Of a DNA stretch of 56,361 nt, positions 2,033 through 5,787 are shown one piece after another (position 1 is the first letter of the stretch; the number at the start of each line of letters is the position of its first letter). The notes under the pieces were generated by a model. It did no database searches and was not told the origin of the DNA. It worked only from the letters and a program-made list of their open reading frames with translations. Source of the stretch: Thermodesulfobacteriota bacterium (GTDB taxonomy: Bacteria > Desulfobacterota > Desulfobacteria > Desulfobacterales > C00003060); assembly GCA_034189385.1 (NCBI GenBank), contig JAXHVD010000027.1:1-56361 (forward strand), read 5' to 3'. Position numbers and translations under genes: made by a program.

Positions 2033-3382
2033 ATGCAAGAACCTATGGAGACGGAAAACATCCAGGAGCCCATCAGGGTGGACAAAACAAAACGGACCGT
2101 ACCGATTTCTCCAGAGCTGGCAGACAACTGCTTGACGTGTGGGACTTGTGCCAGTGGCTGCCCTGCAACGGGGCTGGTGCCGGGCTGGGATCCCAGAAAG
2201 GCTATTCGAGCCATCTCCCTGGGGTTGGAACAGGAAGTGATCGATTCCAAGTGGCCATGGGTGTGCACCCTTTGCGGTCGCTGCCAGTACATGTGTCCCC
2301 AAGCTATCCAGCTGTTGAAGACCTTCCGAAGCTGCCGGATGAAGAGAGAGCGGGACAAGGTGCCAGGGCCCCTGCACAAGGGAACGATCATGAATCTGGA
2401 AAGGGGAAACAACCTGGGTATACCCCGGGACGATATGCTGTTTCTCTTGGCAGAGTTGGGAGTCGAGATGGAAGAAGACGAAAAGCATCCCACACCAGGG
2501 TTCTACGTGCCGGTGGATAAAGAAGGTGCCAATATCATCGTGACCGTCAATTCCAAAGAGCCCTTTGCCGAGCCGGATGACATGAAGTTCTGGTGGCGGA
2601 TTTTCTATGCAGCCAAGGAGGACTGGACCATTTCATCCACAAACTGGGAAGGGGTCAATTGGGGTCTCTTCGCCGGGGACGACGAGAACATGAAGATACA
2701 GGTGGAACGTGTGCTGGAGAATGCCCGGAGGTTGAAGGCAAAAACAATCCTCTATCCGGAATGAGGCCACGCCTACTTTGCGACCCGGTTCGGGCTGCAG
2801 AATTGGTTCCCAGAGGCCTTTGATGAATTTAAGATTGTGAGCGTATTTGATCTTCTCAAAGAGTACATTGAGACAGGAAGAATAAAGATCGACAAGTCCA
2901 AACACCCACAACTAACGACAGTCCACGATCCTTGCAACTACGTGAGGAAGTCCGAGATGTCATTCGGCGATCACTACGGCGACATGTCGCGATGGATCAC
3001 AGCACAATGCTGTGAGAACATGGTGGAGATGTGCGACAGTTCGTTGAACAACTTGTGTTGCGGCGCTGGTGGCGGTGCCTGGGCAATGCCTTATTCGGAG
3101 GAGCGTTTGGCTTACGGCAAGATGAAGGCAGATCAGATCAAGAAGAGCGGTGCAGAACTGGTTATCGCACCGTGCCACAATTGCCGTGACCAGATCATGA
3201 AGGCTCTCCCAAAGGAGTTTGACATGGGCAACTACCATGAGACCCTTTACATCTGGGAACTGGTAGCTGAGTCATTACAGTTCGAGCCATGGAGCGATGC
3301 AGAGATAGAAAAGGCCCATGCTGAGCGGGATGCACAGTTCGAAAGGGACGGGGTTGAGTTAGAAGAAGAGGAATGGGGATAG
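2033..3382 (+). CDS. Selenocysteine-containing HdrD/GlpC-like Fe-S oxidoreductase (4Fe-4S dicluster plus CCG domains), 449 aa
   Basis: ORFs 2033-2764 and 2837-3382 are in frame and separated only by TGA 2762-2764, reading ILYPE-U-GHAYFATR at the family's PECGH Cys; motifs CxxCxxCxxxCP twice, HDPC, CCGAGGG, PCHNC. Confidence 0.9.
2777..2801 (+). promoter_or_regulatory. bacterial SECIS-like hairpin
   Basis: TTTGCGA-CCCG-GTT-CGGG-CTGCAGA starting 13 nt after the TGA; G-led apical loop. Confidence 0.75.
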
Positions 3383-3421
3383 ACGAGTCAGTAACCAGAC
3401 CGATGGCTGCGTAATCTTTAG

Positions 3422-3461
3422 AACCTGGTGACGCTTTGCAGGGCGCCACCAGGTTTTTTTT
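3422..3461 (+). terminator. intrinsic terminator
   Basis: AACCTGGTGACGC / GCGCCACCAGGTT stem followed by a T tract. Confidence 0.85.
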
Positions 3462-3723
3462 GCTAGGGGCCACATGTAGCGGGAGTTCTGGGCTCTTCCT
3501 TTGAGGTAAAGGGCAAGAATCCTTTATTCAGGTGCCAAGGCCGTAGGATGTTTTGCTTAGTCGGGCACGGCGAGCGTCTTTAACACAGCCAAGAGGCAGA
3601 ACATGGCACCAAGATAGTGGCAGACTCAAGGGGGCCAAAAGGAGCCTTGAAACACCCAGTCAATGCAAGCAGCCACTTACGGATTGACAAAGAGAAAGAC
3701 AGAGGACTGGAGAGGATGGGACT

Positions 3724-4416
3724 ATGCTGAAATGTGTTGGATGTGCTATTGCTGTTGCGTTACTCACCATAGGGGTGTGCCAAGCTGCTCCGTGAGGTTG
3801 CAGTCCTTCCTCAGGCGGAGGAAGCGCTATTATCAGGGGGGGAGGCCTGTTGAGTTCACGCCTCTTTGACCCCACACAAACTCGTGGGATCATTGGAAAG
3901 GGAGACCTGGCTCTGGGCTCATATTACCTCGGAGGTGACGATCATGACACTGTCTCATTTCTCGTGGCAGGTCTGACCGATCGCTTAGAGGTCGCGGTGA
4001 ATCAGTATTATCAGGATTCGGACTGGACGGCATCAGCTAGGTTCGGAGTCATGAAAGAGGGTGAACGGTGGTGGCATCCTTCCTTGGTGGTGGGGGCACA
4101 CGATATTGGTAGGCCTGAGGACGCTGCCATCTCTCTGACAGGCTTCAAGTATCTTGAAGTTCCCTACCTTGAAGGACTTTGGGTCCATGCCGGCATCTTC
4201 ACGGAGACCGAAAAGGACGGTGATACAAGAGGGTTTGGTGGGGTTTCCACACCATTTGCGAAGAAGTTTGATTTTTCCCTCCTCCATGACGGGGCTGACC
4301 TCCATGCTATTTTAGGGGCGAATTATAAGGGCCTGAGGATATTTGTGATGGCCTATGAAATGGACCATTTTGGGGTGGGGCTCTCCTACCAATTTGATTT
4401 CTTCGATCCAAAGTGA
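3724..4416 (+). CDS. Putative selenoprotein: signal peptide, AP-U-GC, Gly/Ser linker and probable outer-membrane beta-barrel (YjbH-like), 230 aa
   Basis: AGAGGA RBS and ATG 3724; MLKCVGCAIAVALLTIGVCQA-AP-TGA(3793-3795)-GCSPSSGGGS continues in frame into ORF 3850-4416; amphipathic strands and GVGLSYQF near the C-terminus. Confidence 0.75.
3806..3824 (+). promoter_or_regulatory. bacterial SECIS-like hairpin
   Basis: Perfect 7-bp stem CTTCCTC/GAGGAAG, loop AGGCG, starting 11 nt after the TGA. Confidence 0.7.
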
Positions 4417-4764
4417 TGTGGCAAGGCGTTGATGGTAGGCACGAAATCAGCAGTTTTGTCACGTCAGTCTCTCGTATTTCTCACCGAGGTGCTGTTGTTC
4501 AACGCCACGAGCAGCGGCCCCATTAGCTCAAAAGGCACATGTAAGAGCATCTAAGCAGCTAAGATACCATTACAATGGACCGTTGGCACAGACCTGGGCA
4601 CTGAGGCAGCCACAGAGTCATTGCCTACAAGAAAAGGTCTTCAGCCGTTGTGAAAACAATACGGAGTGGGCACTGCTGTCCTATCTGTGCGCGGTGAATC
4701 TGGCAGGACGATGGACTGAAAAAGGTCTGAAGAGGCCTCTGACTTGCAAAACCCGATATTTTTC

Positions 4765-4793
4765 TTGACAAGGACCCCGCGGATATGTAGGGT
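4765..4793 (+). promoter_or_regulatory. sigma70-like promoter upstream of 4924
   Basis: TTGACA, 17 nt, TAGGGT. Confidence 0.45.
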
Positions 4794-4923
4794 GCGTGCT
4801 GCTTGTTTGGTAAGTACTTAAAAATCCTAGCAGAAATGGGGGTGATTGTCACAACTTGCTGAAATCATGGGTAGTTATTTCGGTTAGGATCAACCTGTTA
4901 ATCTTATATAATAAGGAGTCAAG

Positions 4924-5787
4924 ATGATGTTTTTGAAAAGGGGAGTACTCTCTCTAGTGGCAATATGCATCGTGGCTATTGCCGGAATCTCCTGGGCGAG
5001 CCCCCCGGTCCCGCCACCGCCAGAGGGTTTCGGGATCGTAACGACCACCGATGTGATAGTCACCGGAGATTTCACGCACGAGTCGTCTCTTAACTGGACC
5101 TACATGCATGATACGGAGGAGAACAACGGTGGGGGAAGCACCCTTGCCCATCCGGGGGTGAACCAGGTCCTTGCCGCGGGCGGCCGTGCAGGCCAAATCC
5201 GCTACGCCAACGAAGTGGATGCCATTGATGGTTATGTGGAGTTCAAGAACAACTTCGAGGCCAGGTCTGACGAAGAACCCAATCTGAAGGTGAGCAAGGA
5301 TTTCGGTTACGTTGCCTCACCGTCAAGTCTCATTGCAACGGCCGAGGATGAAGAGCGCGTTGGTTTAAGCATCGTGGCCAATGGAGATGATGAAGGGCTG
5401 GGTGACATGCCTTCTCTGTGTCCTTGGGCCTCAGGGTCGGAGATACCGGCCACAAATGAGTTCATCGCTGCTGGGAGTTCGACTAGAACAACCAGTGCCA
5501 TGGTATCTCACACCGATACCGACGTGACGTCAACGGGCCCACCGTCGCTCAATCACAGCATTTCTGCCGTAGGTGAAGGTACTGTGACGGCAAGCATGAT
5601 CGTGAGGTTGATGGAAGGAGGGGACGTGCATGTGCCTGGCGAGGCTGCACCCAATCTCGTCAGTAAAAACACCTATGAGGAGAGGACTTCGGCTTCCGGT
5701 GTCATTGAGAAGTTTGAGAAAAGCATGCACTATCATTCTACGATCCCTCAATATCAAATGCCTGAGCCGTGGTACGAGATTCAGTAG
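4924..5787 (+). CDS. Secreted beta-rich protein resembling the Methanomicrobiales sheath-protein-like family
   Basis: TAAGGAG RBS, signal peptide ending SWA, PPVPPPPE, LCPW...IPA, TYEERTSASGVIEKFEKSMHYHS; family similarity from memory only. Confidence 0.55.
   Translation: MMFLKRGVLSLVAICIVAIAGISWASPPVPPPPEGFGIVTTTDVIVTGDFTHESSLNWTYMHDTEENNGGGSTLAHPGVNQVLAAGGRAGQIRYANEVDAIDGYVEFKNNFEARSDEEPNLKVSKDFGYVASPSSLIATAEDEERVGLSIVANGDDEGLGDMPSLCPWASGSEIPATNEFIAAGSSTRTTSAMVSHTDTDVTSTGPPSLNHSISAVGEGTVTASMIVRLMEGGDVHVPGEAAPNLVSKNTYEERTSASGVIEKFEKSMHYHSTIPQYQMPEPWYEIQ

Follow-up and report, generated by a model that had tools for sequence, protein, structure and literature searches.

An outer-membrane barrel with an N-terminal Sec-Gly-Cys motif: a probable new selenoprotein family from Thermodesulfobacteriota

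A gene of a Thermodesulfobacteriota bacterium in all likelihood encodes a genuine selenoprotein that folds as an outer-membrane barrel. We analyzed a stretch of 56,361 nucleotides (contig JAXHVD010000027.1 of GenBank assembly GCA_034189385.1; hereafter the window), in which one continuous frame, 3724-4416 on the forward strand, runs from a signal peptide through A-P-TGA-G-C and a Gly/Ser linker into a predicted barrel. The UGA at codon 24 is very probably recoded by SelB as selenocysteine (Sec). By sequence comparison, the protein appears to found a new family of selenoproteins, built on a barrel fold that is already known; this family is not in the inventory that we checked. The frame, the TGA, and the hairpin behind it are confirmed as observations, and their coordinates are collected in Table 1.

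The gene is longer than gene callers make it. An earlier note, made by a model from the sequence alone, had held that the translation table 11 ORF at 3850-4416 (188 aa) lacks a signal peptide and that an ATG in the same frame at 3724, preceded by a ribosome-binding site, supplies one; reading of the sequence bears this out. From that ATG the N-terminus is MLKCVGCAIAVALLTIGVCQA, followed by A-P-TGA(3793-3795)-G-C, and translation confirms the motif, the Gly/Ser linker behind it, and the lack of any further in-frame stop until TGA 4414-4416. In the relative L014, AAAGGA precedes the start by a comparable distance. The hydrophobic character of the signal peptide is kept in L014 and in the homologue P0026, sequence inspection finds no canonical lipobox in it, and the structural model places a low-confidence helix at residues 3-16 within it. 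The mature protein has 209 residues, among which Sec24 and Cys26 are the only Sec or Cys; residues 47-230 contain no Cys at all. The motif GVGLSYQF, which the same note took for the end of the protein, is present but is not the terminus, as the chain continues to DFFDPK. Among the homologue clusters, 5 of 12 end at an F or L two residues past this motif.

Truncated calls are the rule in this family, as had been anticipated. Besides the 188-aa call from 3850, the calls of 35 of the 37 relatives in the database lack a signal peptide (judged as protein calls, and including some partial calls on short contigs); the two full-length sequences are the Cys forms described below. Called lengths among the relatives scatter from 94 to 196 aa and their starts differ widely. 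Thus, the family has escaped notice: gene callers break it at the UGA, and the signal peptide is lost from their calls.

The genome carries a complete Sec machinery. We detected selA, selB, and selD, each scoring above cut-off and the last with one TGA of its own, together with a tRNA-Sec of 72 bits; the only TCA-anticodon tRNA is the one that scores as tRNA-Sec. The TGA column could be read in DNA for three loci: the window, L013, which is a near-copy (97% identical), and L014 (81% identical). Signal peptide, A-P-TGA-G-C, and stem are all kept in both relatives. L014 departs from the window at 37 of 97 four-fold sites (38%), yet all eight four-fold sites in codons 23-33 are unchanged, for which the probability by chance is ~0.02 (~0.15 for the stem sites alone). 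That TGA and stem persist despite this divergence speaks against a fault in the assembly and against a pseudogene in decay. In a contig alignment, none of the 40 differences listed falls in the TGA or the stem, and several diverged contigs, among the matches listed, align from about 3766-3772 on through the motif; neither result was counted as proof. Two further homologues, P0026 and P0029, which form one cluster, are 43% identical to our protein (E 9e-67), full-length, and have C-P-C exactly at the position of U-G-C. The homologue column proposed as a test therefore holds TGA (L013, L014) or Cys (P0026/P0029), which supports Sec, and the N-terminal extension is kept wherever the homologues can be read there.

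Taken alone, the hairpin is weak evidence, modest against chance. The perfect 7-bp hairpin with a G-containing loop that had been described 3' of the TGA is there, and the 11th base after the TGA is the first of its stem. A bSECIS prediction had also been suggested, and we wrote our own script after the model as given in PMC13188914 (a G among the first two bases of the loop, a spacer of 16-37 nt, and a folding energy of -7.5 kcal/mol or lower). The hairpin fits this model in both a strict no-bulge and a bulge-tolerant version, but specificity is low. Under the strict version, 103 of 3000 random genomic TGAs pass (3.4%; 48 as stable), and both internal controls, selD and a neighboring U-G-H gene, fail. 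Under the bulge-tolerant version, the target and the two controls pass, and so do 410 of 1500 random TGAs (27%; 94 as stable). Fold z-scores are ~0 for 58-, 78-, and 81-nt windows and -2.2 for a 36-nt window, a competing structure being preferred in two of the longer ones. In this genome the hairpin of selD is built almost alike, with an upper stem of 7 bp, a loop of 5 nt, and a spacing of 16 nt. Across the three DNA sequences compared the stem is invariant, and so shows no covariation; loop base 3816 varies (C/A/T).

Table 1. Features of the barrel gene and its surroundings in the window, with the loci of the sister family.
Feature	Position or locus	Strand	Description
Full gene	3724..4416	+	230 aa with Sec24; ends at TGA 4414-4416; colinear with L013 and L014 over residues 1-228 of 230
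Ribosome-binding site GGAGAGG	3709..3715	+	9-15 nt before ATG 3724; read in the sequence
Signal peptide (predicted)	3724..3786	+	Residues 1-21; probable cleavage after C-Q-A; judged by eye
U-G-C motif	3793..3801	+	Sec24 (TGA 3793-3795) and Cys26; TGA in all three loci read as DNA; corresponds to C-P-C in P0026/P0029
Ser/Gly-rich tether and short helix	3802..3903	+	Residues 27-60; joins the U-G-C motif to strand 1; helix 50-54
Bacterial SECIS-like hairpin	3806..3824	+	Perfect 7-bp stem; 5-nt loop with G at position 2; loop 17 nt after UGA
Predicted 12-stranded outer-membrane beta-barrel	3904..4398	+	Residues 61-225; model and fold search
Conserved residues, inferred pore-facing	4099..4350	+	His126 (16/17), His155 (17/17), His194 (17/17), Met209 (12/16)
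Terminator-like hairpin and T run	3420..3457	+	After the upstream gene; -22.6 kcal/mol; absent from the consensus terminator scan
Sister loci	L018-L021, L025, L027, L028		TlpA-linker-U-P-x-U-barrel fusions in genomes G462, G897, G937, G845, G1014, G1009, G982

The fold is predicted to be a 12-stranded outer-membrane barrel. A model from 13 sequences was unusable (mean pLDDT 37); with 140 rows, 120 of them from the sister family described below, the mean rose to 72. Blocks of this model have pLDDT 77-90, the exceptions being a loop block (60) and the end of the barrel (73), and residues 1-46 stay under 50. In a fold search, the best matches were KdgM (4pr7; Z 17.5, rmsd 2.5, 155 aligned), FapF (5o65; Z 16.7, rmsd 2.5, 174 aligned), NanC (2wjr; Z 16.5), and the COG4313 channel (4rl8; Z 15.7). 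Barrels of autotransporters gave comparable scores. PcoB (7pge) ranked 20th, below oligosaccharide porins (Z 11.6, rmsd 3.7, 156 aligned, 11% identity). The barrel is even-stranded and amphipathic, follows a signal peptide, and has a C-terminal beta-signal, with four residues after the beta-signal F. The outer-membrane barrel that the earlier note had supposed is thus upheld by a 12-stranded model whose best matches (KdgM, FapF, NanC) are 12-stranded outer-membrane barrels. We infer that four conserved residues, His126, His155, His194, and Met209, face the pore, an assignment made from the hydrophobicity parity of the strands rather than from model coordinates; the equivalent of His194 is found in 120 of 120 sister sequences. 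The N-terminus of an outer-membrane barrel lies on the periplasmic side, and the U-G-C arm should therefore be periplasmic.

The stand-alone U-G-C branch is rare. Protein searches gave 12 clusters, from which 37 sequences were taken; the named members come from a Thermodesulfobacteriota MAG and from Syntrophaceae/Syntrophobacterales MAGs. We found no barrel paralogue in the genome itself, and no copy of the gene among 60 relatives, 36 other genomes of the family, and 400 genomes of the order, nor in 400 genomes of the phylum or in a largely overlapping draw of 401, to which a close-family profile was applied without a positive control. Pattern scans of genome contigs and viral contigs gave no matches. 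In a tree, the Cys form (P0026/P0029) has no firm placement that would favor Sec-to-Cys over Cys-to-Sec or the reverse, and the distant match P0027 sits on a very long branch. P0027 (E 2.6e-6 among 1.8 billion proteins) fits positions 2-133, the N-terminal part, of Pfam YjbH (PF06082); it is the only sequence with a Pfam match, our protein and five close or bridge relatives having none. Two proteins, P0028 and P0030, the latter from an Armatimonadota MAG, bridge our protein and the sister barrels. Both are called without a signal peptide, which suggests that Sec may be hidden upstream.

In the sister family, a related barrel is fused to TlpA. The search of the phylum gave one weak extra match (E 5e-6), the pursuit of which led to seven carriers among 401 genomes of that class. 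All seven loci have, in one frame, signal peptide-TlpA(CxxC)-linker-V-P-S-TGA-P-[V/L/G]-TGA-P-G-E-G-R-A-V-barrel, and gene callers split these fusion genes in two. The frame of L021 (G845) breaks near the barrel end; in the same genome selA (C11) too is broken up by frameshifts, a sign that the assembly is probably prone to errors. TlpA/ResA matches lay below cut-off in the three fusions tested. Both TGAs are invariant, the flanking codons vary synonymously, and in four of four loci tested the loop of the hairpin is 17 nt downstream of the second TGA, the same spacing as in our gene. A GAGGG or GAAGG before the sister GTG could act as a separate start; the product would then lack a signal peptide. 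His/acid-rich linkers occur in three of the seven fusions and an N-terminal CCxxC domain in three others. All seven carriers show Sec genes, whole or partial, a co-occurrence that we rejected as evidence, since selA is present in 76 of 101 genomes of the class in any case. The sister barrel is widespread: at least 2,728 clusters were found among 8,000 candidates scored, with source names that include Blastocatellia, and the top 120 are nearly all 174-175-aa calls starting just after the TGAs. A literature search found no publication on this TlpA-UxxU-barrel family.

Homology between the two barrels is remote and has moderate support. Alignments by hhalign gave 88.5% (E 2.7e-6) and 79.5% (E 1.5e-5), and the bridge proteins P0028 and P0030 scored 41 and 50 bits on the two HMMs, against at most 4 bits for reversed controls. 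The rise of the mean pLDDT from 37 to 72 once sister rows were included also speaks for homology. Identity is ~22%, and HMM cross-scores are mostly 9-24 bits. Both families have Sec just before the barrel, the 17-nt hairpin spacing, and truncated database calls. The sister family, however, has two Sec (U-P-x-U), a fused TlpA, and at least 2,728 clusters, whereas our protein has a single Sec in U-G-C, a barrel that stands alone, and 12 clusters; U-x-x-U and a thioredoxin domain are both absent from it. By analogy, the TlpA-fused sister family, which the earlier note had overlooked, is the best mechanistic clue that we have.

The barrel gene lies directly downstream of a gene for an HdrD/GlpC-like Fe-S protein (2033-3382, +), which callers split at TGA 2762-2764 and which reads through as P-E-U-G-H. 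L013 and L014 show this split too, and the gene matches the “Fe-S oxidoreductase-like, UGH” selenoprotein family listed in PMC13188914. The terminator-like hairpin after this gene suggests that the barrel gene is transcribed separately. Two minus-strand genes (227-976 and 1120-1569), divergent from the HdrD-like gene, are a putative Se/S carrier (PF11823), ~3 kb from the barrel gene, and, upstream of this carrier, a regulator that we take to be Rrf2/IscR-like. The 500-nt intergenic stretch that follows the barrel gene (4417-4923) has several hairpins, one at 4418-4462; Rfam has no match in 3300-5000. Next comes a gene (4924-5787, +), syntenic in L013 and L014, for an exported 287-aa protein with a Pro-rich N-terminus, one conserved Cys (S-L-C-P-W), and no Pfam or NCBIfam family. 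The annotated neighbors include no metal genes and no cop gene, and TlpA is neither fused to the barrel nor encoded in adjacent genes. Elsewhere, the genome has six redoxin matches, two of them with one in-frame TGA each (G000:C19:27839-28264 and G000:C23:169016-169378); these two are likely selenoproteins and candidate reductants for the arm of the barrel.

We propose a mechanism in which this protein would be a signal-peptide-bearing, 12-stranded channel of the outer membrane with Sec-Gly-Cys at its periplasmic mature N-terminus, on a tether of ~35 residues. SelB would read UGA24 as Sec with the aid of the in-frame hairpin. The Sec/Cys pair would cycle between selenenyl-sulfide and selenolate/thiolate, and a periplasmic TlpA-type thioredoxin, fused in the sister family and a separate protein here, would reduce it. 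At the periplasmic mouth of the His/Met-lined pore, the reduced arm may capture soft thiophilic metals (of the Cu(I), Hg(II), or Ag(I) type, or other transition metals), the least certain step, and the captured metal might then be handed on. Soft-metal capture is favored because of the inward His and Met and because of the His/acid-rich linkers and CCxxC domains of the sister fusions. Three near-invariant inward His together with Met209, the presence of PcoB in the same fold class, and the entry, in the PMC13188914 inventory, of a family of Cu/Zn efflux transporters with a UxC motif all count for metal. Against metal, the neighbors of the gene are not metal genes and PcoB came only 20th in the fold search; among 42 ORFs around the seven sister loci (picked heuristically, fusion ORFs and some picks being omitted and some antisense shadows included) there is no metal transporter or metal regulator (Pfam, E<=1e-10). 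Against the chain as a whole, the link to the sister family is remote, its motif is UxxU rather than UxC, and the Cys form is one cluster. From selenoprotein barrel through TlpA-type reduction to soft-metal capture at the pore, the chain is a tentative proposal, in which we would somewhat sooner expect a link to fail than all to hold. A broader reading comes nearer to a balanced judgement, while still falling a little short of it: the protein may be the single-Sec, stand-alone branch of a large, unannotated superfamily of small barrels (thousands of clusters, including soil Blastocatellia) that makes up an envelope module with TlpA, a heme-free thiol/selenol relay of the outer membrane whose selenium-tipped swinging arm would regain electrons in the periplasm and work at the mouth of the pore on metals or on sulfur/selenium species.

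The main rival to metal capture keeps the same selenoprotein and makes its arm a catalytic redox shuttle, passing reducing power from a TlpA-type protein via Sec/Cys to polysulfide, persulfides, selenite, or small disulfides that enter by the pore. Thioredoxin reductase uses a swinging arm, and TlpA is fused in all seven sister loci. The surroundings also point this way: our gene is downstream of the U-G-H selenoprotein and close to the Se/S carrier, a sulfite-exporter family gene is near one of the seven sister loci, and a gene that we take to be cysteine-synthase-like is beside two. Furthermore, the Geobacter porin ExtI, which lies beside a selenoprotein and is not itself one, has been tied to selenite reduction (PMC5877670, in its accessible part). 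These neighborhood hints are nevertheless few, they are not conserved beyond close kin, the upstream gene is apparently terminated separately, and such a shuttle has no need of inward His or His-rich linkers. We regard sulfur or selenium reduction as unlikely, without being negligible. Less probable again is that the arm, on the same selenoprotein, moves no cargo and serves as a redox-controlled plug or sensor of a solute channel (KdgM/NanC-like) or a secretion pore (FapF/YjbH-like). The best folds are indeed solute porins and FapF, a short helix (50-54) precedes strand 1, and P0027 matches the N-terminal part of YjbH, the barrel of which is described as FapF-like and 12-stranded in the accessible part of a paper on multi-barrel proteins (10.1101/2021.02.17.431615). 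Yet the model does not place the tether with confidence, and a dedicated fused reductase together with Sec would suggest turnover rather than a switch.

Readings without Sec would be a considerable surprise even when taken together. If the UGA were a true stop, the gene would be a nonsense pseudogene, an assembly error, or a leader peptide followed by a separately started 188-aa protein. Gene callers do find downstream starts, many random TGAs pass the hairpin test, and the gene was not found in the 36 other genomes of the family. But the TGA is present in three independent assemblies with frames intact at 38% four-fold divergence, the called starts vary and none has a signal peptide although a barrel needs export, and the Cys orthologue is full-length, all of which makes a true stop very improbable. 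It is scarcely credible that the UGA is read as Trp or Cys through a variant code or a suppressor. ARAGORN does find no tRNA-Trp(CCA) in this 90%-complete assembly; against this, the only TCA-anticodon tRNA is tRNA-Sec, the homologous residue is Cys and not Trp, and TGA terminates the barrel gene and others, such as a uvrB-like ORF.

The selenoprotein family matches none of the catalogued ones that we checked, as the earlier note had surmised. Pfam and NCBIfam have no family for the protein at E<=0.1, and a PDB sequence search gave no relative, with one irrelevant match at E 0.022. A 2026 inventory of 119 families (PMC13188914) has no such entry, and the accessible parts of PMC9312934, of deep-Sep (PMC12013277), and of BSepDB (PMC13326102) show no further barrel selenoprotein; a search of the BSepDB supplement gave no match, but it gave none even for TlpA. 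Literature searches found no description of this family, which the unvalidated candidates of Deng et al. 2026 might include.

The protein adds a selenoprotein family on a fold without a listed Sec member and, together with its TlpA-fused sister, points to an outer-membrane pore as a site of Sec/Cys chemistry. It offers a small, testable system: a mature protein of modest size that occurs in nature with either Sec or Cys, and a fusion, also found in nature, from which the likely reductant can be named. The family bears on the handling of soft metals or of sulfur and selenium at the surface of anaerobes and soil bacteria, and on why some of them use Sec; its reach comes from the sister family, the U-G-C branch being rare.

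Among known systems, the nearest by fold are FapF, KdgM, NanC, and COG4313, which share the 12-stranded architecture (Z 15.7-17.5, rmsd 2.5-2.7 over 155-174 residues) at 7-16% identity. FapF is a trimer with an N-terminal helical plug, and to our knowledge none of the four carries a Sec/Cys arm. YjbH/GfcD (PF06082), with two barrels per chain and genes in an exopolysaccharide operon, resembles the family via the distant match P0027; we rejected membership, since our protein has one barrel in 230 aa, no match to the profile, and no exopolysaccharide operon around it. PcoB is likewise a small outer-membrane barrel and a functional analogy for the metal reading, with a comparison that concerns fold class alone and no cop operon context seen for our gene. 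Elsewhere, the UGC/UxC motif sits in a thioredoxin, an Ig-like protein, or an inner-membrane protein. The UGC-containing TlpA, DUF1573, the SO_0444 Cu/Zn transporter, and Sec.2, all listed in PMC13188914, share the three-residue Sec/Cys motif on unrelated folds. The same inventory lists two barrel selenoproteins, GSU2204 (MtrB/PioB-type, NF041027) and the TonB-dependent receptor FCYXU (NF049945), which, like ours, are exported barrels with UGA-encoded Sec from Desulfobacterota-type bacteria. Our protein differs in having a 12-stranded barrel of ~165 residues, no CXXCH, no TonB plug, and its U-G-C on an N-terminal tether; we rejected it as either of the two because it has no NCBIfam match and lacks the motifs CXXCH and CxxU. 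By analogy, then, the protein would work like other Sec/Cys redox or metal-binding motifs and fold like FapF and KdgM.
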